Source of the DNA: Octopus vulgaris
Lineage: Eukaryota
Length of the DNA: 64,000 nt
NCBI GenBank assembly: GCA_951406725.2
Contig: OX597825.1
Location: forward strand, 83,576,001-83,640,000
Direction: 5' to 3'
Below the pieces are notes generated by a model. The model had not been told where the DNA came from, searched no databases, and was given only the letters and a program-made list of their open reading frames with translations. Both the position numbers and the translations under genes were made by a program. Of the stretch, positions 81 through 52,083 are shown one piece after another (position 1 is the stretch's first letter; every line of letters starts with the position of its first letter).

Positions 81-2017
81 AATAAACTGTTTTTATTTTA
101 TTTTCAGAAACATAATAAACTGGCGGGGTTCTCTTTTTATATTCCTGCACAATGTGGGAGATCTTTATTCTTCATCCAGTATATAATTAGCGCAGAAGAG
201 TGTGACAGAAAGAGAGGTGCCGGGGGTTCCACAGGGGAGCCTAGTTTCTTAATTTTACATTTAAGATTTATTTTTATCTTTGCTAAATATTACGAATCCA
301 GCGACCAGCTATGAAATATATAAGCGGTCATTTCACAAAAATTGTCTCTTCGTGTGCGGTTAAGTTTCTCTTTATTAGACTTCGGAAAATTTTTGTTTTA
401 ATATGATACAAATATATGTAATTTTGGAGATCAACTCAGTGATGCATTCATAGCAACTTCAAGAAATATGGTCTTGGTGGAATAGTGACCACATTTGTCT
501 CACATTACTCGTTCTTCAAAATGTAACTATAACCAAACTGTATAAAGAACATTCACTATATTGAATATGCTGCTCCTGAATTAACTCAACTATGTATATA
601 TTGAGAGCTAAGCCTATTGAAAAGGTTTCAAGGTGCAACGAAAATTTTAGGAAAGTAAAAATAAGAAAAAAAAGTGGAAATTTTACCGGTGAGTGTGTTA
701 CATTATAGGGCACAAAAAGATAATGACTCTCCCCAGACACAACAGAATATGCTTCAACACACGAACTCATATAAAGAATCTTGCAAACCAAATCCAAAAA
801 CGAAATACGTATCTATAAAGTTTTGTATATACATACATGAACAAAAATTATCCGAAGTTGTCAGTGATCAATTTGCTAGAATTCATTTCTTGGATCTCGT
901 GTATGCAAATTGATTATAACAAGAAGATTTTTGGTGTTTGTTTTGGTTTTTCGGTTTGAGTTGTCAACCTTCAAAGCATTTCAGAAGTGTTCAATAACGT
1001 TCGCATTTTTTCAATTAAGGGTATTATCTATAGTTTGAGTTAATTAAAGTTATCGCCTTCAACGAAGTGTGTAGGCGCTACCTCTCCACATTTAGAGATC
1101 ACGCCTCCGGTTCTACGATGTGGGATTAGAATATCACAAGAAAGAATGGCAAAGCAGGTGCTTCAAGCATGGCAGTTTGGCAGGAGATTTCCACGAAGAG
1201 GGAGGTGGTAGGAGAATCCAATCGGAGATTGTTTTGTGAGTTGTTTCTGATAGAAGTTCACGGAAGAGGACTCTCTCTTTCTTTCTTTCTTTTCCCTCTT
1301 TCTTCCTTTTTATCTTCTCCCCTCTCTCTCTCTCTCACGATTCTCCCAGGAATAGACGACTGAGCATATAGATGGATGGACGGATGATTCGATCGATAAC
1401 TGGAGTGATAACTGGATCAATGAACGTAAAGTATAGTAGGGCCCTTCTCTAAGATGTTATACCAGAGCAAACTCACACAACAGTGGTACTGTAAGTCTAA
1501 ATCTAATGACAAGAACCGACTTGCTGCAAGGATCTTGCACAGTCTATTATTTTAGGAATATTGACAGAATATTTCTCGAGGACGTATCTTATAAATACAC
1601 GATACACATGAACTTGGATAATATCGACGTACAGTACATATTCTGCGTCTCTAATTGATGCAGCAAGAATATATCTACCAGTGTATGTATAAATGTATTC
1701 ATCTATGTATGTATCGACGTATATATATATATATATATATACGTATGTGTGTGTGTGCACGTACACATATATACACATGCGAATATGTATATACGGACGA
1801 CTTATAACTTATGTGAATTCATATTGATGCGTTATTAATATTCAACTATAAATTAAATATATATATTCATTTTTTTTTTTCGTAATATTCTTTTTCCTCA
1901 GAATCAACATTAAAATAACCGCCGGCAGAAAGTAAAGCGGAAATCGATAAAATCGATGGCTAAATCGTTATTTTTAATTTTTAATATGTACTAATTTACA
2001 ACTCTGACACAGCTTTG

Positions 2018-2074
<57 letters not shown>

Positions 2075-2097
2075 GTGTGTATGTGCATGTGTGTGTG

Positions 2098-2132
<35 letters not shown>

Positions 2133-2960
2133 GCACATACACTTACGTACATATATATGTACGTATGAAATAAAGTGGATACGTGTGTGTGCGCGCATAT
2201 ATATATATATAAGTATAAATATATATGTATATATATATATATATATAATATATATAATATATATATATGTATGTATATACACACACTTATATATACATAT
2301 ATATGTGTGTGTATGTGTGTGTGAGTGTGTGTGTGTATGTATATATGTATGTATTATTGTGTTTATACGCGTATTTGTTTAAATCTAATAGGTGAGTAAA
2401 AAGATGGATATGTGATATTAAAGAGATGAAAACTGCAATATCAAGAACAACAACAAGAAGAATAACAACAACAACAGCAGCAGCAACAACAACAACGGTT
2501 TCATCGACAGATTCTTCCATGATTATTTCAAGTAATATATCGGCAGGAATAATCAACTGAACAAACACGAAACCAAAGTGGAAATTACAAACATTGAATA
2601 TTTTATTTGCGGTTTGTTTCTTGAATTTCATTTTTATAAAGTGTTTTCGATTTTAATTAAAACACAACCAGTTCACATTTAATACATTCCATGTAATTTA
2701 CAAACTGCATACATGGAAAACTGTAAAGTCTCGAGAATTTTTTTTTGCGTAACGGATAGCGTAGAGTGCCGTGTATCTCCCAGCTAAAAGTCAAAGGTGT
2801 TCGTCTATTTAATAGGACGGACTTGTTTATAAATCACAGCATTCCGATGTTCTTTCTTCATCTGTTGGTCTGTCTACCTATCTACCTATTCAACCATCTA
2901 TCCATCCACCCATCCACCTATCTACCTATATATCTATTTTTTTAAACATAGGTATGTTTC

Positions 2961-3187
2961 TATTTCTTTACTATCCACAAGGAGCTAAACACAGAGGGGC
3001 AAAACAAGGACAGACAAACGGATTATTTCGATTACATCGACCCCAGTGCGTAACTTAATTTATCGACCCCGAAAGGATGAAAGGTAAAGTCGACCTCGGC
3101 GGAATTTGAACTCAGAAAGTAACGGCAGACGAAACGCGGTTACGCATTCGCCCGGGGTGCTAACGTTTGTGCCAGCTCGCTGCTTTA
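2961..3187 (-). mobile_element. tRNA-derived SINE, family A, full length with TSD
   Basis: Minus strand carries head GCGAGCTGGCA, B box GAGTTCAAATTCC and tail AAAGAAATA. Flanked by a 17-bp direct repeat AAACATAGGTATGTTTC at 2944-2960 and 3188-3204. Many copies in the window. Confidence 0.9.
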
Positions 3188-3517
3188 AAACATAGGTATG
3201 TTTCAGCTAAAATTGGCCCGACCATGTGCACCTTAATAACGCCATCTGGTAGAGCCTACTGAATCATTTTCAAATGTAGTTTTGTCGCATCACACCCCGT
3301 TCAAGACATGAGTAGGTAGCTGTTATTGACTGGGATATAACCATGTATAGTTAGTTAGGCTGGTATCCATTGGCGAAATTTTGTCCAAATATCGTTTGAA
3401 GATTATCGGATTTGTTCTTCCTTGATTTCATTTTTGTTCATTTTAGATAGAGTAGGACTTAATAATGAAAAGTAATGTTGCAATTTGGGTGTGTGTGTTT
3501 GGAGCAGGATCTGAACT

Positions 3518-3531
3518 GTTGCTATGGTAAC
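3518..3531. promoter_or_regulatory. RFX X-box-like palindromic motif
   Basis: GTTGCTATGGTAAC fits the RFX consensus GTTGCYATGGYAAC. It lies in non-microsatellite sequence. Motif match only. Confidence 0.4.
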
Positions 3532-3818
3532 ATAGCCAACATGCACAGAGTGAAACCGCTTAGCGTAGATTAAGCTTGAACACTGTCACGCATAAACACT
3601 AAGGGGAAGGCGAAGTTTTTCTAGGCATGGCCTCACAAGGGAAGAGAAACCCGTCACCTTGTTGTACGAACTGGAAAATACTAAGGGTCCTGGCACGTAA
3701 ACTTGCGAGCACAGTCAAGTTTATAATCGATGTGAGCGCTCCAGTGAAGGCTGTGGTCAATAATAACTGCTAGGTATCTCATGGAAGGAAGGCTGTATTT
3801 TATTTTGAGCAGACGGTG

Positions 3819-32367: not shown

Positions 32368-33239
32368 GTCTATATATAGGTGTGTGTGTGTGAGGATGTA
32401 TGCGTGTATTGGTTCAATTGTTAATGAATTGCATCGCAGTAATGTCGACATAGTGAAGTCTGATATCAATTAAGCTTTGATTAATTACAAATAATTAGGA
32501 AAAAAATCAAGAGAGAAAAGTGAAGCCAATCTCTATGTCGAGACTCGAACCCCAGTTTCAGGCTTTTAGGTGAAAGCCGAACCTATGAGTCTAAAATATA
32601 TATATTTTTTAATTTTGGCACGATGCCAGCAACTCTGAGGGAAAACGGAAGTGGATTATATCGTCTTTAGAAATGCCGCTAAGCATTTTGCAAGGCACGC
32701 CTTGGGTGATTCAATTATATCTAATTTTCCGTAAAAGGGAGCAAACACGTCGAATAGTTAAAGAGTGCGGCTTAAAATACTAAGCTCCGGCCATCCTCCT
32801 GCGAGTTCAAATCCCATCGAGACATTACGGGTGATGAACAAAGAACCACTCTACTGCTATTGCTTCCACTAACGGTATCGGATATCTCGTAAATTCCGCT
32901 ATTCGATACTGCGTCATTGTTGTACGAGGAGTCAGCGTTAAAAACTATCTCCTCTGATGACTCTTTTGCATATATTACTTATGAGAGTTTTGAGAACAGA
33001 GCGTGGGAGATTGGAGTACTTGTTAGTTGACAATAACCTATCATTAGGATTAATATGGCTTAAAGGTGCAAATCTAAGTTGATATATAAAAATATTCCTG
33101 CCAACTTTTGGAAGAATACAATAAAATTCTTCCTGTGTTCAATCAGCTGATGCCCATTCATATTACGGGTGATAAGGAGTCCAACATCCCTATTTAGATC
33201 TGAGATGGATATGTCTACGATTTCACGACACTTGAAGTC

Positions 33240-33740
33240 ATGTTTCAGTCAACATCATGGTGTTTGGAGGGATCACTAGTGATGTCAACGTTATGTCTCC
33301 ATTCATCTTCCCACACGGCCTCACGCTCAACACCTACATCAAGTGCCTGGAGGAGGTAGTGCTGCCCTGGGTCAACAGGGTGGCTGCTGGACGACCCTAT
33401 GTCTGGCAACAGGTCTCTGCATCATGCCACACACGCAGGGGAACACAGTCATGGCTGTCAGACAATTTCTGCGACCACACCACCCCCAACTTCTGGCAAA
33501 CAAACTCCCCAGACTGCAACATCGTTGATTATTATGCGTGGGGCGCAGTTGAGCAAAAGACCAACAAAACCCCCTCTAATACCAAAGATGAACTGAAGGC
33601 AAGGATTATGGTAGCATTCACCAACTTAAACAAGAAGACCATCCAGAAGAGTTGCAGGAGATTCCAATGTTATGTGGAGGCCATGGTTGAAGCCGATGGC
33701 GATATTATTTAATAAATTTACCCTTCAGCATTTCAAGATA
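33240..33740 (+). pseudogene. maT (DD37D) Tc1/mariner transposase 3' half, inactive
   Basis: ORF 33257-33712 has WQQ(V)SASCHT...SPDCNIVDYYAWG. There are 37 residues between the second catalytic position (D mutated to V) and the third D. Confidence 0.9.
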
Positions 33741-38451: not shown

Positions 38452-38743
38452 CAGTTCTATATGCCCAGGGGCATATGGCGTAGTGGTGAATAGCGCGGGC
38501 TACTAACCTCAAGATTCCGTGTTCGAGTCGAAGCAGTGGCCTGAACACTAACAATAATAATAATAATAATAATAATGATAATAATAATAATAACAACAAC
38601 AACATCGGAAAATTCCTTAGGAATGAAAACCCAAGTTCGAAATTTCCTGAAGAAGGCAGGACGGTATATCAGCCGAAACGTTGTGTTAACAACAAACAAG
38701 ATGAGGACAAATATCCGTCAAATTTAAATAATGTAAATAATGT
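38452..38743 (+). mobile_element. tRNA-head / (AAT)n / hammerhead-tail element, copy 2, with TSD
   Basis: A box TGGCGTAGTGG, B box GTTCGAGTC, CTGAAGA-AGGC..GCC-GAAACGTT. 13-bp direct repeat ATGTGCAAACATA at 38439-38451 and 38744-38756. Confidence 0.8.
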
Positions 38744-39469: not shown

Positions 39470-41199
39470 TTACTGGTGAGTCCGTAGGTGACCGATAAGA
39501 CCAATTCTTGCTTGAAAAGATCGGTCGCAGTGCGGACATCTAGTGCCGGAAGGGAGAGTCGCACGTGGTTGTTGTTGTTGGCGCTCTTTCCGTCGTCGTC
39601 TTTTCTCCTCCAGCTCTGCAGACCTTTTCGACTCGAAAGTCGCCGTTCCCTCATGGATGGTGGTTTTCCAGAGTGGTCTGTTTTTTGCCGTTTCCTCCCA
39701 GTCGATGTCACACATTTTGAGGTTCGTTTTCAGGGAGTCATTGTAGCGTTTCTTCTGGCTTCCTTTTGTGCGCTTGCCGTCTTTGAGTTGGGAGTAGAAG
39801 ATCTGTTTGGGAAGTCGTTCGTCAGTCATTCTAACCACGTGGCCGCTCCATCTTAGTTGGCCTTTGATGACATAGGCTTCGATGCTGGTCATTTTTGCTT
39901 CTTGTAGCACGCTGACGTTTGTTCTTCTGTCTTCCCAGCTGATGTTAAGGGTCTTCCGAAGACAGCGTTGGTGAAATTTCTCGAGCGTTTTCAGGTGGTG
40001 ACTATACGGGGTCCGGGTTTCGGATGCGTAAAGGAGGGTTGGAATAATGACTGCCCTGTACACCATGAGTTTGGTTTCGGTTCGGATGTCCCGATCAGCA
40101 AAACCTCTTGTTCGAAGCTTGCCGAAAGCTGTTCCTGCACACTTCAGACGGTGTTGGATTTCATCGCTGAGGTCTACCTTTGCTGACAGATGGCTCCCAA
40201 GGTAGCAGAAATGGTTCACATTTTCCAGTGGAATTCCTTCGAGTTGAATCGATGGCGGGTTGTCAACACGTGCATTGGGAGGAGGTTGGTAGAGTAAGTG
40301 AGTCTTCTTGATGTTGATGCTCAGTCCAAGTTTAGTAGGTGCATGATGAAAAGCATTTAGGATCTGTTGGAGGTGATCCTCTCTGTAAGCTGCTACACTG
40401 TTGTCGTCGGCATATTGGAACTCTAGCAAGCTTCGCACCATTGTCCTTGACGTACTTTTGAGGCGAGCGAGGTTGAAAAGCTTGCCGTCCATTCTGTACG
40501 AGATCTCGAGCTAGGTGGAAGGTCATCTCGTATGATGTGCAACACTGTCGCGATAAAGATGGTAAAGAGGGTTGGCACTATCACGCAGTCTCGCTTCACT
40601 CCGGAGGTGACTTTAAAGGGCTCAGGACTGCCTCTGTCGGTCTGGACTCTGGCGTGCATATTGTCGTGGAGGAGTTTGAAGATCCGGATGAACTTATCTG
40701 GGCATCCATACTGGGCGAGAATATCCCAGAGGAGCCCTCGCGAGACACGATCAAAGGCTTTGGATAGGTCGATAAAGGCCAAATAGAGCGGTTGGTGTTG
40801 CTCACGACATTTTTCTTGTAGCTGTCGCAGCGTGAAGATCATGTCGGTTGTGCTTCGTGATGGCCTAAAGCCGGTCTGCGTCTCAGGAAGGATCCTCTCT
40901 GACAGCGTTTTGAGGCGGTTGTTCAGGATTCGAGCGAGAGAATAATCTTTGGCCTCTTTAGGAATCATGTCAAGTATGCTTTTGTCGATGGTAGCCTTGT
41001 GACTGAGGAGGTCATCGAAGTGTTCTCTCCATCTGTCTCCTATTTCAGTGTTGCTTTTCAGGATGGTCGCTCCGTCTTTCACTTTTGGTCGGAGTTTGAT
41101 TTTCATGGTGGAGGCGATGAGGCGATGATCTGTCCAACACTCATCTGCTCCAGTGGCGGCTCTGGTGAGCAACACATCTTGCTGGTCTCGGGATCTCAC
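39470..41199 (-). pseudogene. RTE reverse transcriptase and C-terminus, split over two frames
   Basis: QTGFRPSRSTTDMIF, FIDLSKAFDRV, QYADD, FCYLGS, LRWSGHVVRM and a terminal C2H2 finger. Frameshift near 40510. Confidence 0.95.
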
Positions 41200-41228
41200 G
41201 ATGATATAGTCGATGAGATGTCATTTTT

Positions 41229-42059
41229 TTATCTTGGATGCTGCCATGAGACCTTATATCGATTATTCTGGCGAAAAAGGGTGTTGGTTATCACCAGGTT
41301 ATGTTCAGCACATTTGGTGAGTAGCAGAGTTCCATTGGCATTGACTTTTCCCACTCCTTCCTTTCCGATGGTTCCTGTCCAGAGTTCACGATCTCTCCCA
41401 ACTCTGGCGTTGAAATATCCCAGGAGAATGATCTTCTCGTCCTTTGGGACGGTAGAGAGAATGCTATCAAGCTGGCTGTAAAACTCTTCCCTGACTAAAT
41501 CCTCCGCGTCAAGGGTGGGAGCATACGCGCTGATGATAGTTGCGTGCTGACTTTTGACAAGCTGGATTCGGAGGGTCATGATCGTGCGGACATTCCGATG
41601 GGCTGCCCTGTCAGTTTGGATAGAATGGTGTTTCGTATTGCAAAAACCACACCATGGATTCGTTGATGGTCGGGATCGTAACCTTCCTTTCCAGAAAAAG
41701 GTGTATTGACCGCCTTCTTCTCTCAGCCGGCCTTCTCCGGCTCTCCGGGTTTCAGTGAGAGCTACGATGTCAAAATTGAATCGATGGAGTTCCCGGGCGA
41801 TGATTGCAGTTCGCCTTTCGGGTCCGTCTGAGTTGGTGTTATCTATGAGAGTCCTGACATTCCAGGTCCCGAATTTCAGCGTTGTGTATCTTGATCTTGA
41901 TTTTCGATCGCATGATGGTGATCCCTCTGGACGCGGTTTTCCAGAGAGGATTGGGGTGAAGCAGACTATGTTTAGGTCACCTTTTCTAGCCCCTTCCCAA
42001 TTCAGGGTGAGCAGAGTGGATCCTAAACAGGGCTGCTCAGTCGTGGATACTGCTGCCAA
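41229..42059 (-). pseudogene. RTE apurinic-like endonuclease domain
   Basis: Motifs FGTWNVRTL, DIVALTETR, SAYAPT and LLG(Y)FNARVG (catalytic D replaced by Y). TDHRL lies in the next frame. Confidence 0.93.
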
Positions 42060-42392
42060 ACATCTTCCCTGCTTCTTCCGAAAGATAGAGCGACTGAATC
42101 ATGTAACCACTGCATTCGTGCCGGTTCTGCACTAGGAGCCTCCAGCCTTCACGAGCCTGCTCCCGTCATCCATCGCCGATCGGCGAAAGACTTGGAAAGA
42201 ATAAGAAGAGTGGTGGCGAAGACGCCTGTGCGTGAAATTTTTTAACGTGTGCTTGTGATCGCACGCCCAGTAAAGCACACGTAAACTTGACAGACCACCA
42301 ACTTGACCCAATGGCAAGGTAAACCGAGACGATTGGAGTCGATGGTCTGCTGCAGCCTTCGTCCGCCTTCACAGCCGTTGAGTTGTTAAGGC

Positions 42393-42769: not shown

Positions 42770-43280
42770 CTCAGTAGGCGGCACCTCGGGCAAGTGTTCC
42801 CTCCCTCGTCCCGAGGCAAGCAAATTCTTGTGTGTCAATATGGTAAGCAGAAACTGAAAGAAGCCCTTTTGTGCAAATATGTTTATTTGTGTGCGTGTGT
42901 GTTTGTTGTTGTTATTATTGTTGTTGCTGCCAATGTATGTGTGTGTGTTTATAAATAATAAAATATATGTATACATCAATGCATGGATATGTATGTGTAG
43001 TTAGATAGATAGATAGATTGATGGTATATGTATATATATATGTATATCTGTATACACAAATGAGTAAATACTTATGAGTGTGTGTGCTTGTGTTCGACAT
43101 CACCATCGTTTGACCAAAGATGTTGGTTTGTTTACATCACTGTAACTTATCCGTTCGGCAAAGAGTACCCGATGGAATAAGTATATGGTTTAAAAATGAA
43201 TTCCAGGGTCGATTTGTCTGACCAAACACTTTAGGGTGTTGCTACAGCACAGCCATATTCCAACGAGTGAATAAAAAAAT
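42770..43280 (+). mobile_element. SINE family B, degenerate with expanded internal microsatellite
   Basis: GCGGCACCTCGGGCAAGTG...GTTCGGCAAAGAG..CCGATGGAATAAGTA. Confidence 0.65.
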
Positions 43281-43308
43281 ACAAGATATATATGTGTGTG
43301 TCTACATG

Positions 43309-43365
<57 letters not shown>

Positions 43366-43464
43366 ATATATACATATATACATACATATATACATACATA
43401 TATATATATACATATATTTGTATGTAAGTATGACTGTCTAAATTAAGCAATATTAATTAATTAA

Positions 43465-44005
43465 GACTACACCTATAGCAATAACGAATGAGACCAATCG
43501 TTGTTCTGATGAATTCATTCATGAAAATATAATTGTTTTCCTTACTGAACTATCACAGTTTGTACTATGTTGACGCCTACGTATATTACCTTTATCCTGT
43601 TCGACTGTGTACTAACATAACATCATCGGACGAATAAAAAGACGTAGGCGTCAGGCGTGGGCTGTAAGCGTTTGTCGCGGACATAACGGAATGTCTTCCT
43701 TAACAAGCGTGACCGAAATATATTATTCACGGATATAGTAAAATTTTCTGTTGATTTACAAGTAAAAGTATGTTCTCCGTCTATCAATATCTATTCAACC
43801 GAACGAGATTAATAATATCCGTGATCGTTCGTAATAATTATTGGAGCATCATAGCAACGCAAATAATGTTATTTATTTATACATAACAGTATTTTAAAAT
43901 CCATTGCCAGTTCTAAGAGTGTATTTATAACAATTTCCTCCTGTTTATTTAGCCGCTATTTCCCTGCTAACATATACCGCTGAGTTATTAATTTATTATT
44001 AAATA
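43465..44005. repeat. Diverged ~540-bp repeat with two further copies at about 34008-34595 and 35565-35910
   Basis: Shared blocks TGAAAATATAATTG, ACGTAGG, TAACAAGCGTGAC, ATATCCGTGATCGTTCGTAATAA.TATTGGAGCAT and ATGTTATTTATTTATACATAACAG. Confidence 0.75.
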
Positions 44006-44654
44006 TATTCATGATACTCTAAATGTTTAATTCTGTGAATAAATCTCATGTTTCCTCCGTTCCTGTAAAGCATAGACAATATTGCCAATTCGTGCCAGGC
44101 TTTTTATTAGTTTTACTAACACTAAATCAATAATATATCTTTCTCACTTTCTCTCTATCTTTCATTATCACTTACCTCACAAGCACTCGATTATACCTAC
44201 ACACACAGACAAACACACTCACAGAGACAAACTCACACACACACACAAACTCACACACACAGACAAACTCACACACATAGACAAACACGCACACACATGC
44301 ACCGAGCGGGAGAGGCTCATGTGAACACTGCCGCTTAAGAAGAGAGCCTTAGGCCACCTTGCGTATCGTTAGCTAATTTGGCGCCTACATGTGACCCGCC
44401 ACCAACAGTATCCAATTCCGCATGAAACCACAATCTAACCTCATAAAAAGTAACATTCTAGATAATATATCCCTAATTACGGTATGCCTTGAGAACATAA
44501 TTTGAAAAATATGGTTACCGATCTGTATATCGATTGAACACTTTGCTATCATTCCCTCTGACTGTCTTCTTCTGTTCGCCATCACACACACACACTTTCA
44601 CACACACACACACACACATGGACAAATCAGTCAGTCTGAAGTTGCCATATATTC

Positions 44655-44832
44655 TTTTCTACTCTAGACACAAGGCCCGAAATTTATAGGGAGGATACCA
44701 GTCGATTAGATCCACCTCAGTACGCAGCTGGTACTTAATTTATTGACTCCGAAAGGATGAAAGGTAAGGTCGACCTCGGCGGAATTTGAACTCAGAGCAC
44801 TGTCCGAAGCGATCACGCTTCTGCCAACTCGT
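44655..44832 (-). mobile_element. SINE family A, internally deleted
   Basis: GTCGACCTCGGCGGAATTTGAACTCAGA core. An oppositely oriented degenerate copy lies at about 45003-45240. Confidence 0.8.
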
Positions 44833-45714
44833 CGATTTTGATTTGGAAATATGATAGCTGCTTCCGAATTTATGATAGCTTTCTTAGCAAAACTCATCTA
44901 TATAATTCACTTTAAGACATGCTTATCAAGAAATCACTCAACGCAGAATGTCTTCCTCGAGCGGCGTTGGAATTAGAATCTCATTATTTTCAGTTGTTAT
45001 GTGAGTAGCAAGCTGACTGAATCTTTAAAGTTTTGGACAAGGCAGTTTTGGACAGTATTCCTTCCGTTTTCTTTTTTTCTTTTTCTTTTTTTTTTTCATG
45101 TTCTGAGTTCAAATTCAGCCGAAGTCGATTATGCCTTTCGATCTTTCGTGGTCGCTAAAAATAAGAAGTCGGGCACGGAAGATTAATGTAATCGGCTGAT
45201 CCTCTTCCAACAAACTTGCCGGCCTTGGGCAATAAAAATAATCTGGAACAATTATTTTCTTTCTCAGGGTACCAGTATCATTAATACATGAGTTCCTGAT
45301 TCACATAACGCAAATACTCGAAAATTCCCCAGTTCCATGCTTTTAGTTAAGGATGTCGTTATACTTGTAAGAAGCCGTATCGTTCGAAGAATTTGGTGCC
45401 AGCCAAGGGTCGGTTTGGCAATTTCCTGATTATAAACGTTGATACCTAAGACATAATGATCCAAAATACAACACTGAGTTTTAAATTAAAGAATTGATTT
45501 GCCTCTTCCTACTTTTCCAATGTAATTTATACACGGGATATATCTCTTACAATTCAAATGACCCCATCATATTTGGAGCAGAATCATTATATTCCGCCAA
45601 GGTTGTGAGCGTAATTTGAAATGGTTGATACAATAATGCGCAGAAGATATGTTTGTCCCAAGGTAAACCATTAAACTGGTATCAACCATAACGCTGTCAG
45701 ATATGAATAATCTA

Positions 45715-46492
<778 letters not shown>

Positions 46493-46764
46493 AAACTGTG
46501 AATAATCCATCAAAGCTGATATAATTTTAAATCGAAGAATCAGAAAGTACGATGTTAATTGTCATCGTTTCGAAACCAACCATCCAAATAAACAGCTTTC
46601 GACAGTTTTGAAACCGATTTTCTCGACCAAATTGAAATATTTGTATCTTGTCTCTTTCTTCTATTTTGATATATTTTCTACGGATTACACAGTTTTACAA
46701 TTTTTTATGACGTTAGTTTTTAAGATGAAATGTTGCGATACAGCTGCGTCTTATATGCGCTGGA

Positions 46765-46818
46765 ATAATAATGACGATGATAATAACAATAATAATAATG
46801 ATAAAAATAATAATAATA

Positions 46819-46865
<47 letters not shown>

Positions 46866-46956
46866 AATAATGATAATAATAATAATAATAATAATGATGA
46901 TGATGACAATAATAACAATAATAATAATAATAATAATAATAATGATGATGATGATG

Positions 46957-47019
<63 letters not shown>
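46765..47019. repeat. (AAT)n/(GAT)n microsatellite
   Basis: Direct inspection. Confidence 0.95.
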
Positions 47020-47698
47020 GAGTAAGATGGAACGTCTTAGAGAATGACGTCTGCAAATGTGGAAAAGTCGGTACACTAAAACATATTCTTTCCAACTGTT
47101 CGTTAGCATTGAACAGGTACACATGGAGGCACAACTTGGTCCTTAAGGTTATCTTCAATGCTATAAAGAATCAAATTCATCTCAACAACACTGAGGAAAA
47201 ATCGTTAAAAGTACCATCAAGAGAGTTCATTACCTTCGTGCGACCAGGTCAGCAGATCCGTTTCAAGAAGAAGACCAAGAAACTTCCTGAGAAAAATGAA
47301 AAGTGGAACGACTATTGGGAGGTAACTGCAGATTTACCTGGGTGCCAGGTTTTCTTTCCCATCCCAGTTTCGAAAAACCAGATATTTTGATGTGGTGTGA
47401 AAGAAAGAAAGTTTTAAATATAGTCGAGCTAACGGTTCCTCACGAAGATAATATGGACGCCGCTCGAGCTCGAAAATTAAACCGTTATGAAAACCTCCTC
47501 GAGGAATATGAAGACGCAGGCTGGAAAGCGGAACATTTTCCTATCGAAGTCGGATGTAGAGGGTTTGTAGGACACAGCGTGAGACGACTGTTGTTATCGT
47601 TAGGCCTAACTCATCGTAAAGTCAATACCACCATGACTGATATCCAATCTACAGTGGAGAAGGCTAGCCACTGGATTTGGTTAAAAAAGAGACGATGA
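47020..47698 (+). pseudogene. HERO-like non-LTR retrotransposon, zinc knuckle plus REL endonuclease, 5'-truncated, one frameshift
   Basis: CKCGKVGTLKHILSNC (CCHC) and RYTWRHN, then after a frameshift near 47370 KPDILMW..IVELTVPHE..RKLNRY..GW..PIEVGCRGF..EKASHWIW, all characteristic of HERO-clade REL domains. Confidence 0.88.
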
Positions 47699-47740
47699 GC
47701 GATGGCTAGAAGTATATTGAGTTCATCATAACCAGCTGAT

Positions 47741-47852
47741 CTAGCAAGCGGGGCCTCATATCAGTGAGGGGGGCCGGTGCGCATTGATGCCGTCGAGAGG
47801 TAGGCCCCGAAACGGCGCGCATTCTCTCCTGATGACCCCATACACTTGCTAG
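47741..47852 (+). ncRNA. Putative strand-permuted, pseudoknotted hammerhead ribozyme in the HERO 3' UTR
   Basis: GUC (47792-94), GAAA (47809-12) and CUGAUGA (47829-35) are each flanked by perfectly pairing stems I, II and III, plus four extra helices. See findings. Confidence 0.65.
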
Positions 47853-48380
47853 CTTCCGATATACGGAGCTTTTAACTGGTAGCACTTGCATGTGCAAGTT
47901 GTTTGCAAGATATATATAGAAACACTTACTCAACCAGATGAACCTCAGTGAGAAATGACATAGACGTTGTTAACGTTAGAACATTCTTCCGTTTATTCGA
48001 GCATCGAATCAGTGTTTGTAATTAAAGGAAGTCTCAACACATAATATTAATGATACGATCGATTTAGCCTTTACACAGTTTTTCCTGGATTTTCTGACGC
48101 TCTCAACATACATTGTTTAAAACAACAATTAAGAAAATGAAGATATTACAGCTGTCATATGGTGTTTTATTTCTTGAATCTTCTAAAAATATTTGCACTG
48201 TCAAAATGTGTGTGCTTACATTAATATATATATATATGTGTGTGTGTGTGTATGTATGTAGGTATATATACATGTATATATGTGTGTGTGTACGTATGCA
48301 TGCATATATGTATGTATCTATATATGTATATATATGTGTGTATGCATGTATATATACATATATATGCATATGCATCTATG

Positions 48381-48439
<59 letters not shown>

Positions 48440-48624
48440 GGATAGATATATGCATATATATGTGTCTGTACGTATGTGAAGTGCACATTAAGTTAGTGAC
48501 GTAAGAAAACAAGAAAGATTAATTAATTAAATACCACACCTCTGGTGAAGAATCAGGTGAGGCCAACCCTATGTGTGTGTGTATCTGTATATATATATAT
48601 ATATATATACACATATATATATAT

Positions 48625-48723
<99 letters not shown>

Positions 48724-49164
48724 CACACATACATATATATATATATATTTGTATAGTATTACTATTATTTCTAGTTTTGCTGTTGTTATATCTATGCATA
48801 TATATATATATATACATACATATATATAGGCACACATTTATATAAGTATATATTCAACTGTTTAACTGAGACAGGGACATACATATACCAGTGTACTTGT
48901 GTACATGTATTACCTGCATATTTCTATGCGTTTATTCCGTGGAAGGTATTTCAATTGTCATTTGTTTATTGAAGATAATAATATACTTAACACGAGTCAA
49001 CGGTAAACACCAGCACTAACCATTTCCAACTCTGTACGTATGAAAGAGAATTTTACGTAACGGTTATTTTAGACTCATTATGGATAAAGCAAGACAAAAA
49101 ATTACAAGAGCTTCATGAAAATTCAAGAAGAAGACGGTTTTCCCTCAGGAGCACAAACAATCTA

Positions 49165-49350
49165 ACCAGTAATCCACAAGGGAAGAGAAAGAGAGGGCAC
49201 CCTAATTATAGATGGATGTAGAATCCTGAGGCAGGGCTGAAAGGACAGGGATTCTACTGGGGAGTTCCAGAAAAGACAACCAAGAAACGAGAACAATGGG
49301 AAAAGTCTTCGATGGGCAATGCTCCATCGTCAGGGAAATGATCAAGTGGA
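49165..49350 (+). pseudogene. Degraded 3' end of an RTE-type LINE
   Basis: Reads NPQGKRKRGHP..W..E..G..W....REQW, the typical RTE C-terminal GKR.RGRP..W motif, with an internal stop. Confidence 0.6.
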
Positions 49351-52083
49351 TAGGTTAGTAAAATAAATAGGTTCCATCAATCGATAATACCCCTCATTCT
49401 TTGGAAAGAATGGTTTCTTCTCCGCTGCCTATGATATTTATGCTTCATGTTTTCCCTAGCTGAATTTTTATCGAAACGCTTGAATTTAAGATTTAGTCCA
49501 ACGAGAAATCAAATGTATTTATTACAAAATCGTTATGAAGTTGTTTCAATTTAACTTTAAAGTTAATTGTGATAAAAAATAAAACTAGATAAAGAACAAA
49601 ATCAAATGAAATGAATAGAAAATTAACCTGAATATAAATGAAAGGCGTTTTAATTAAGAAGTCCATATGAAATTTACATTAAATATACATGAATCAACTA
49701 ATTAATTAATAAGTCAGTGATCCGCAATTAAATGACAAAAGAAACGATTAGTTGTTAATGAAATAATATTAAGAAAAAGAAGAAAGAAGCGAATACTCAT
49801 ATTTCTTTAGACATGTAAACGGGATGTTGCGTTCGTTGTGAGTTCATAGGTTCACTAATGCGCTCTTATGGGCCTTATTGTTGCTGATCTTTAGCAGAGG
49901 TCACCACTGATTGAAAAGTTTCAAAATGAAAGGCATCATCGTCATTATTATTTTGTTATTTTTGTTGTTGTTGTTGTTGCTCTTGCATAACCTTTTACTA
50001 TTTCTATTATCAAAGGCCTTGCAATTCTTATTACATCACATTTGTTCTTATTCCTTGGTCCCAGGTTAGTCCTCTTTGAGAAAGACTGAGAACAAATGAC
50101 TTGAAACTATGATCACATCATTGTTACTATTGTTTAGCCCCGGGCCAGTTTTATTTGAGCGGACTTCCGGTTACCAAACGAACCGAAACAGTGACCATAA
50201 AGTTGTCGCTATTGTTTAATCCCAGGTCAAGTCTCTTTGAGCAATTCTATGATCAAAGACATTAAGATTGCAATCTATTCGTTATAACGGCATCTCTAGC
50301 GTTCATTAGCGTTAGGTCTACTCCATCAGTTCGCAGACTTGTTAGAGCATCATATACTATATGCGGCCCCTTAAAATGACGGCGAGGTCAAATTTACCTG
50401 TCTTCCTTTTCTGGTCAAGAAATAATGTACCAGAATGGTCCTGGAATTAATTCTTCTTTATCTCTCATTTTTTCTGTGTTTATCTTGCTTCTTGAAACAT
50501 CCGCTATGGTTGATCATACCTGGAAAGGACTAGGATCCCTTATGTATTTAAAAAGTGTCAAAGATGTATAGCATTTCCCGACGGTGCTTCTACATCTTTT
50601 GCAAGGATTTGAGGGCACAAGGTGAGGCATTGATTGCAATGTGACTCTCCACGATCGTTCCTATGTTAAGGTGAGGTTAAAGAGCAAATTTGATGCTGTT
50701 TCTGATTAGTCGAAAGACAACAGAGATTGCACCCTATTGGTTGACTGTCTTCTTCAATTTCAAGTGCCTTCTTCATAAACACATCCAATTGTCGTTGACT
50801 TAGAAATGGAACTCGCGATCTCGCAACTCACAGTTCTTCTATAAACCACTACATCACACCTCGAAGCTCTTGCCTTCAGTTAATATACAAATTAATTATT
50901 ATATACAAATTACTTTATAATGTTATCAATAACTTGTTAGTAATGAAACAGAACACTCCTTATCTCTATTTCTTTCTGTATCTCTCTCTCTCTCTTTCTA
51001 TCTCTTTCCCACTCTCTCTTATTCTCCATCTCTCATGAGTATAGTCTTTGTGTAAGTGTGATTCGCAATAAGAAATTGCTCTTTTCGTAGTTAAGACAAA
51101 TATTCTCTGATGTGTTTCGTCCGTGCCGTACGTGCTCCATGGCAAGTGTGATAACTTTCAGTCAATTCATTGTCGAAATATAAAGCAACAATCAATGTTT
51201 TATTATCCATATTGTCTTCTTTCAAGAGAAGTTTCCAGCAGACATGTTTAACATCCACTTAAATATCAAGGGGATACATCACTTGAATAGTGTGAACTGC
51301 TTCCAAAGTAATTCCAATGATAAAATAGAAGTATCGAGCGGACATTTCACCAAAGATTCACTTTCTCGAATCTATCTCAATTGGTCCTGTGGGTAATATA
51401 TATAAACTGTCTATATACATGCAAACAAACAAACATACGTACATGAATACGTACTGACAGACAGATAAACAGAAAGATATATATATATATATACATATAC
51501 AAAAATACATACAAAGACATACACATATTTAATCAAATACATATTTCTTTCTCCCCTCTCTCTCATCCCACTCTCTCTCTCTCTGTATATACAATACATT
51601 GAATATATATACATATATATATATAATATCTATACATATAATACATATATATATGAACGTACATGCACGTGACAACAACGCACTCAGATACACAAATGCA
51701 TGTATATGCTATATATAAGTATAATATATATAAATATATATATGTGTGTGTGTGTGTTTGTGTGTATGTATATATATATTTATATATACATATATATATA
51801 TATATGTATGTATGTATGTATGTTTGTATGTATATATGTATACACGTATACATATATATTAATATATACATGTATATATAGTTATTAGTGAGGTATTATC
51901 AATCCGAGCAAAATATTTAGTAAGCTCTCTGTTAGTACACCAGGCTAAGAAAATTGTTTAGATTAGTAAAGAGCCCCACGTAGACTTCTGCCCAGGTCGG
52001 AGGTTATAGTTGATCACCATTCTATACTATAGATCTATGGCTGTTTCCCAGTTATACTGATTTTATCATTGAGTGATACACAA

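Follow-up and report, generated by a model that had tools for sequence, protein, structure and literature searches.

Does the RNA that follows the coding sequence of a LINE in the Octopus vulgaris genome fold into a hammerhead ribozyme and, if so, what could the ribozyme do for the element? The question arises from an earlier note on the 64,000-nucleotide stretch of DNA analysed here (the window), in which the parts of a hammerhead were recognised in an unfamiliar strand order. The element is a young, 5'-truncated copy of a non-LTR retrotransposon of the HERO clade, with a restriction-like endonuclease (RLE), at positions 47021-47913 of the + strand. Its 893 bp correspond to positions 2845-3737 of a 3737 bp unit. 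They are 99.7% identical to an intact unit (L037:1109-4845), from which they differ by two 1-nt indels. A (TAA)n/(TGA)n microsatellite (46767-47020, no strand assigned) abuts the truncated 5' end. There were 2671 candidate matches to the copy in the same genome; the 40 that were scored were all 99-100% identical.

The intact unit has a single ORF of 1112 aa. Its only Pfam match is RVT_1 and its best PDB matches are structures of R2. Its C-terminal motifs are of the CCHC and PD..E kinds, the latter being that of restriction-like endonucleases. The intact unit has the single ORF of the HERO clade, with RT, C-terminal CCHC and restriction-like endonuclease. The GIY-YIG endonuclease and PLE-type RT of Penelope-like elements were not found; RVT_1 was the only match, and relatives and PDB matches are R2-like. 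In the window, the C-terminal CCHC and endonuclease part persists as a frameshifted remnant (47021-47720, +). The stop codon of the intact ORF lies at 47718-47720 in window numbering, 74 nt upstream of the predicted cut. The hammerhead had been placed about 40 nt after the stop, which is correct for the frameshifted frame and not for the intact ORF. By eye, the RT signatures agree with the HERO-1_BF and HEROTn rows, and not the Utopia row, of a supplementary alignment that was available in part (PMC7650587). The earlier assignment to HERO is upheld at the level of this by-eye comparison.

All nine of the helices and core segments named previously (47731-47880) pair fully at the positions given; every part described here is on the + strand. 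Block S (47789-47799) contains a strand of stem III, C17 and a strand of stem I. Stem III pairs 47789-93 with 47812-16 and stem I pairs 47795-99 with 47824-28. C17, of the GUC site, is position 47794 and the cut is predicted on its 3' side. A GUA linker (47800-47802) leads from stem I to stem II. Block G follows (47803-47816), with a stem II strand, C11.1, GAAA (47809-12) and the second strand of stem III. The segment 47817-47839 then carries the 3' strand of a helix X, the second strand of stem I, CUGAUGA (47829-35) and the 3' strand of a helix P. The stem II strand with G10.1 (47770-47775, pairing with 47803-08) is displaced upstream of block S. Immediately after it, the 5' strand of helix X (47776-47782) pairs with 47817-23.

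The upstream position of the stem II strand means that the link between A9 and G10.1 is replaced by a four-way junction. One arm is helix P, in which 47750-47753 pair with 47836-39, starting at the nucleotide after A9. A second arm is hairpin H (47754-47769; 47754-58 paired with 47765-69, extendable to 6 bp), which ends immediately 5' of G10.1. The claim that two helices join A9 to G10.1 with no unpaired base is borne out in the window. The junction has four arms (P, H, stem II and the core), and A9 and G10.1 meet where its strands cross over. Judging from the zero-unpaired geometry, stem II would stack on the core and H on P. Helix P is prolonged by P2 (47741-47748 with 47845-52), and the outer helix P3 (47731-47735 with 47876-80; pair probability 0.89-1.0) is specific to this family. 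In the window's family, 35 bp bind the two cleavage products to each other (stem II 6, X 7, stem III 5, P 4, P2 8 and P3 5). Two small hairpins (47851-56/47865-70 and 47884-89/47894-99) occupy the RNA between the ribozyme and the end of the element. The integrated 3' end is GATAT (47909-47913), 119 nt 3' of the cut and likely an internal priming site; in tandem loci the same position is a fixed junction to the 5' UTR.

A descriptor for this split topology, applied to both strands of the 64-kb window, gave one match, at 47794. A scan of positions 43000-50000 with Rfam gave no hammerhead at E<=10, and only repeat-driven miRNA noise. Pseudoknot-free folding did not show the motif (z 0.05), and stems I and II had zero probability in the nested ensemble. 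Both outcomes are as expected for a doubly pseudoknotted fold. Other pairings for stem II were considered. A competing helix (47749-56/47802-09) is possible in the window's HERO family only; the corresponding alternative stem II was rejected since relatives favour the proximal strand. A canonical type-SGC stem II directly after A9 was rejected as well: it could be formed, with at least 4 bp, in just 1 of the 28 motifs described below.

We looked for the motif in relatives of the element. A protein search gave 293 relatives, 50 of which were aligned, and 70 metagenome loci were fetched, from the best 80 of 396 confirmed stretches. The encoded proteins are 32-69% identical. The descriptor gave 34 matches on the sense strands of the 70 loci and none on the antisense strands; three dinucleotide shuffles of the 270,933 nt also gave none. 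Relaxed inspection added nine motifs, and a copy truncated at the edge of its contig was left out. Of the 39 loci whose sequence extends past the end of the ORF by 150 nt or more, 36 had the motif. The three loci without it have 182-468 nt of downstream sequence, and sisters of two of them carry the motif 0.7 and 1.6 kb out. Motif-bearing loci occur across the whole RT tree (made by a quick method, unrooted and used to show spread only). The suggestion that fish HERO elements have a similar motif is borne out by motif-bearing loci 79-89% identical to named fish proteins; others are ~71% identical to a scallop protein. Among the matches in viral contigs there was only one distant RT, which has no bearing on the motif.

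The non-redundant set comprised 28 motifs with a median identity of 0.51. The first five positions of stems I, II, III, P and H were paired in 21-28 of the 28, with many pair types. Because the anchors had been picked by pairing, we ran non-circular controls in which strands were combined across families. A perfect junction (P and H of at least 4 bp each, zero unpaired bases) was formed by 24/28 native motifs and 112/756 cross-family combinations. When helix P was anchored from H alone, at least 4 bp formed in 20/28 and 69/756, respectively. The first four pairs of H form in every motif, and in most relatives P is a single helix of 5-15 bp. Helix X had at least 5 bp in 26/28 motifs; at least 7 bp were found in 18/28, compared with 62/756 for cross-family combinations. 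The linker between stems I and II is short in all 28. In a sequence-only MAFFT alignment of 24 motifs, 81% of cells were paired, against 59% after shuffling and 35-44% after sliding, and 22 of 24 pairs had two-sided changes. Hence, the fold is real and its structure is conserved across HERO families, with compensatory changes in stems I, II and III as well as in the extra helices, while control sequences gave no matches.

The core was equally informative. CUGANGA is present in 26/28 motifs; one of the other families has U3-A8 and one U3-G8. G10.1 is found in 28/28, its pair with C11.1 is G-C in 27 and G-U in 1, and N7 is free. When the cut site was anchored without constraint on its letters, U16.1 was found in 28/28 and N17 was C in 12, U in 8, A in 8 and G in none. 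This is the NUH rule of hammerheads (A15.1-U16.1, and H not G). At 0.51 median identity, G5, A6, A9 and G12-A15.1 are invariant. One hammerhead feature is absent: A9 is not connected to G10.1 directly or via 1-2 nt, and helices P and H take the place of this link. The core of CUGANGA, GAAA and NUH and the covarying stems I, II and III nonetheless identify the motif as a hammerhead, as first proposed.

Does this conservation reflect cleavage? The motif could be a catalytically silent scaffold, derived from a hammerhead and bound by the HERO protein in the manner of the R2 3' UTR pseudoknot. Integrated copies retain both sides of the cut site, the broken A9-G10.1 link has no tested precedent in the literature covered, and the nested ensemble gives no weight to stems I and II, both of them pseudoknots, all of which suits a scaffold. 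Yet a scaffold does not account for the strict NUH rule or for the invariant core bases in such diverged sequences. The 3-8 pair of the hammerhead core forms in the active fold, and the swap to U3-A8 falls at this pair. Furthermore, type-SGC hammerheads that cleave tolerate a one-base insertion at A9-G10.1 (descriptor with an extra U; PMC10085705). We consider a silent scaffold very improbable. Judged from the sequences, the pattern of conservation is that of a working hammerhead, beyond that of a mere fold, and the RNA is predicted, with good confidence, to cleave itself after C47794.

The strand order had been thought undescribed. This is not so. Eckert, Friedrich, Weinberg and Weinberg (2023; PMC10085705, available in part, as were the other papers cited) treat the hammerhead as made up of three blocks, S, G and C, and report the order S-G-C, named type SGC, in metatranscriptomes and viroid-like RNAs. 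In type SGC, a linker of ~3 nt connects stems I and II, and a helix ties the extension of the stem II strand to the linker from G to C; helix X is the equivalent of this stem I-II interaction helix. In vitro cleavage has been shown for type-SGC RNAs (HRIMA-1 and variants) that combine these three features (PMC10085705). Hence, the strand order of the HERO motif is not new. The two also have in common their core bases and two core pseudoknots. They differ in block C, which is whole in type SGC and split in the HERO motif, where the stem II strand is upstream of S. They differ also in setting, as the HERO motif is genomic and inside a LINE, whereas type SGC comes from metatranscriptomes. In the sections available, no type-SGC RNA was found in the genomes of known organisms (PMC10085705).

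The same paper assumes that blocks are uninterruptible, and its descriptor requires the stem II strand 0-1 nt past CUGAUGA (PMC10085705). Since a four-way junction stands at A9-G10.1, the published descriptor cannot match the HERO motif. The motif has the type-SGC order, linker and tying helix (at least 5 bp in 26/28) without the uninterrupted block C. A full-text search whose reach takes in little of the subscription literature turned up no paper that connects HERO to hammerheads, no subsequent paper on type SGC and no four-way junction at G10.1. The parts available of PMC4640811, PMC13708176, PMC13580325, PMC3088659 and PMC10162972 contain nothing on a HERO hammerhead or a junction at G10.1. 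Taken together, the HERO motif is a real, clade-wide hammerhead variant, closest to type SGC but lacking its intact block C. Within the literature searched, the new part is the split of block C, with the four-way junction at A9-G10.1.

We examined the ends of element copies in relation to the cut. The idea that cleavage defines the 3' end of the element does not hold. Each of the 30 copies fetched first stops at GATAT (in one case GATA), 118-119 nt beyond the cut, and retains the sequence on either side of it, which excludes the cut as the integrated 3' end. We also rejected the cut as the 5' end of full-length cDNAs. Genome-wide, C17 is retained in 648 copies (exact 21-mer match), and among 21-mer matches preceded by a purine 2/8 were truncated at the cut, against 0/6 at a control offset. 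Hence, there is no pile-up of ends at the cut.

Copies with a complete 5' end were recovered by searching with the first 222 nt of the unit; 40 of 75 candidates were scored and 37 examined, the three left out starting at positions 33-78. The start of the unit is reached by 32 of the 37 (two of these loci are a segmental duplicate). In 31 of the 32, at least 24 nt of an element 3' end stand upstream, joined to the unit at one fixed junction without poly(A) or added bases. The exception, L071, has ~6 nt of the 3' end before the unit start, and is the only 5'-complete copy that can be said to lack an upstream piece. The junction is the same in copies whose identity to the young unit ranges from 100% down to ~76%. 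Upstream pieces span 24-1974 nt (median ~250 nt); 24/31 pass the cut site and none ends at it. We conclude that the head-to-tail junction and the cut site both lie within an unbroken template, and that reverse transcription is primed internally.

The same layout is found elsewhere. In 17/40 motif-bearing metagenome loci the motif runs into a 5' UTR and ORF start. Short-read assemblies collapse repeats, so these junctions show existence and not frequency. One such locus, L136, is a 1680-nt piece (99.9%) followed by a full unit. Many relatives from the protein search come from contigs 3.6-4.0 kb in length, close to that of one unit; this would be the outcome if the head-to-tail junction leads assemblers to close the unit on itself. 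Contigs bridging the junction occur in 3 guessed-RNA runs of 4 compared; they are contigs only and show no RNA ends, and because the junction is also genomic they are evidence neither way. Target-site duplications are mostly absent at composite loci, and they are uninformative since most single copies lack them as well (one of ~60 bp and one of ~10 bp were seen).

A circular template would explain the partial second copy that is attached to nearly every copy extending to the element start. We propose that the ribozyme cuts out a unit-length RNA, which is closed and then reverse-transcribed for more than one round; we place this at even odds. Transcription reading through a locus of piece plus unit would give an RNA with two ribozymes, and cleavage at both would free a unit-length RNA. 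This RNA could be closed by ligation, presumably by RtcB or by the reverse reaction of the ribozyme, or with its nick held shut by base pairs. Reverse transcription would probably be primed internally on the circle, 119 nt past the cut. Copying up to and past one round would then leave a partial second copy. The sequences themselves show a covarying fold, loci laid out as partial tandems, a junction that is fixed and cDNAs that continue across the cut, and such a scheme has to accommodate them. The 35 bp that join the products would favour re-joining over release. RtcB circularises monomers of animal retrozymes in vitro (PMC7229834) and Poseidon, a Penelope-like element of Anolis, primes internally (PMC11167929). 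The circle model itself is borrowed from retrozymes: double cleavage, ligation by RtcB and tandem cDNA from a circle. Carried over to an autonomous element, it accounts for the facts most simply.

Several findings count against a circle. In about a third of young copies (12 calls in 34 segments) the G run at 47768-73 has 5 G rather than 6, which may be assembly noise; a 5-G run spoils one pair of the junction. Closure of a monomer requires that the products, bound to each other by 35 bp, first exchange partners. The upstream piece of locus L031 shares 2 variants with L013 that its own downstream unit lacks. Locus L127 joins, head to tail, two HERO families that are 67-71% identical, and may be a misassembly. 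Its ribozyme is intact and non-chimeric; the switch falls after the first ribozyme and before the second ORF. Both loci look as if they derive from two templates each. In addition, most upstream pieces are short and resemble fresh truncated insertions.

These last points suit a model in which the RT, on reaching the 5' end of a linear RNA whose ends are defined, jumps to a second element RNA at its 3' end, the ribozyme being incidental; template jumping by the R2 RT is established. In a variant of this model, the head of an existing copy serves as the insertion site for a new one. Either way, tandems are re-created each time. Yet one junction is found in 31/32 loci of every age, without poly(A) or added bases, and the sole 5'-complete copy without a true upstream piece is L071, with its 6 nt. 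Moreover, in 7/19 composite loci the two pieces share variants that are absent from all other of the 70 sampled segments. The differences not shared between composite pieces are mostly C-to-T or G-to-A. We regard template switching as improbable.

The main rival of the circle, which we consider unlikely though less so, is read-through as in Penelope-like elements. The ribozyme would be active, and the template would be an uncleaved multi-copy transcript primed at the junction. Cleavage would free uncapped RNA for translation, or would limit activity by severing the ORF from the priming site. In the tandem layout, the cut lies ~320-390 nt upstream of the ORF. Poseidon has the same partial-tandem layout and internal priming; its hammerhead is dispensable for insertion in vitro, and uncleaved RNA is the main template (PMC11167929), which favours read-through and speaks against a circle. 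Viral type I hammerheads (PMC13725137) and the HDV-like ribozymes of R2 (PMC6765202) have been tied to the start of translation. Uncleaved RNA also predicts continuity of cDNA across the cut equally well.

What separates read-through from a circle is the fate of the upstream piece. Without closure the piece can only shrink at each generation, yet young pieces reach 1974 nt, and the piece-plus-unit layout persists in old copies and in other species. Furthermore, of 36 distinct 3' termini, 20 carry the next 1-7 nt of the junction sequence (at least 3 nt in 11 of them). Composites with such bases at their downstream end imply templates with two junctions, yet no three-piece array was found: no two of the 33 junction-pattern matches genome-wide lie within one unit length. 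Renewal of the piece without three-piece arrays is hard to explain by read-through. The bases could instead come from a preference of the endonuclease or target, and not from the template, and it is possible that arrays are collapsed in the genome assembly.

We note three further features of the element. Internally deleted derivatives (L056, L057, L060, L063, L065, L069, L076, L159 and L162) retain ~270-850 nt at the 5' end and, at the 3' end, 300-620 nt. The majority have the fixed junction, and they are possible non-autonomous circles. The 5' UTR of the intact unit (L037:1143-1231, unit 35-123) has five hairpins with GGAAAGAC loops at ~20-nt spacing, starting 35 nt past the junction; among the metagenome loci, many distant families have similar repeats after the junction. 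Lying next to the priming site, the GGAAAGAC-loop hairpins are a candidate protein-binding signal. Lastly, L032 (and L003/L004) has a 5' inversion, with the unit from 224 onwards joined to opposite-strand 1975-3737 and both ending in the same flank; it may have arisen by twin priming or by local duplication.

The split fold is not confined to HERO copies. The pattern CGAAA-N14-34-CTGANGA has 65,700 matches in the genome, against 15,641 for a reversed control. We inspected 20 of the matches at the head of the list; they include ordinary type I hammerheads and truncated copies, and one is a second HERO-like family. The commonest family with the G-then-C pattern (L182, L183) was set aside as an ordinary type I hammerhead matched by chance. 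Three abundant families, F2, F3 and F7 (loci L202-L221, L222-L241 and L242-L256 in the same genome), are short, T-rich, non-coding repeats with 4603, 2587 and 4479 candidates, 40 of each being scored. They have stems I and III, a stem II strand that lies upstream, and both hairpin H and helix P. A perfect four-way junction is seen in a subset of F3 and F7 copies; in F2, and in further copies of F3, U's are left unpaired in it. The F3 unit is ~880 nt, and three of the loci tested have the piece-plus-unit layout. No partner ORF for F2, F3 or F7 was found in the loci inspected. The second, diverged HERO-like motif family of this genome is seen at L199:1240-1360.

Elsewhere in the window, an ordinary C-G-S hammerhead motif (type I, Penelope-like) of a very abundant family lies at 38640-38700 (+). 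A frameshifted APE-RT LINE with three overlapping frames occupies 39470-42098 (-), and is presumably RTE-like by its motifs. A fragment at 33236-33712 (+) we take to be from a Tc1/mariner-like transposase.

A more far-reaching reading combines these strands. The HERO clade as a whole would consist of autonomous RLE LINEs that replicate via a ribozyme-made circular RNA and rolling target-primed reverse transcription, with a hammerhead outside the six published permutations, and with the same fold driving thousands of short repeats. We give this combined reading a probability of roughly 0.42. If it is true, a large class of animal ribozymes has so far been invisible to every descriptor, and the annotated 5' and 3' ends of HERO would correspond to a circularly permuted form of the true RNA. 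The long-proposed model of tandem cDNA from circular RNA becomes testable in an element that encodes its own protein. In any case, natural covarying examples break the stated rule that block C of the hammerhead is uninterruptible, and hammerheads that are not circular permutations are extended from viroid-like RNAs to animal genomes, at high copy number. HERO, a clade of interest for genome engineering, gains a conserved RNA element. Its layout, with no defined 5' end, a fixed head-to-tail junction and internal priming, is not predicted by the R2 paradigm.

How does HERO compare with known ribozyme-bearing elements? It is like the R2, L1Tc and other LINE ribozymes in having a ribozyme of self-cleaving type, here a predicted one, in an RLE or non-LTR element (PMC6765202, PMC13708176). 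The R2 and L1Tc ribozymes are 5' and HDV-like and set the 5' end of the template, whereas full-length HERO cDNAs run past the cut. HERO resembles Poseidon in its hammerhead near the integrated 3' end, partial tandems, internal priming, AT-rich targets and variable-length 3' ends running into the next unit (PMC11167929). Conversely, Penelope-like elements combine a GIY-YIG endonuclease with a type I hammerhead, and HERO combines a restriction-like endonuclease and a HERO RT with a split SGC hammerhead. With animal non-LTR retrozymes (PMC7229834) and plant retrozymes, HERO shares a hammerhead in each of its tandem repeats. Retrozymes are 170-400 nt long in animals, non-coding and equipped with type I or III hammerheads, and their circles have been shown (PMC7229834). 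HERO is a 3.7-kb autonomous element with an intact 1112-aa ORF, though with internally deleted derivatives, and its circle is predicted from genomic sequence.
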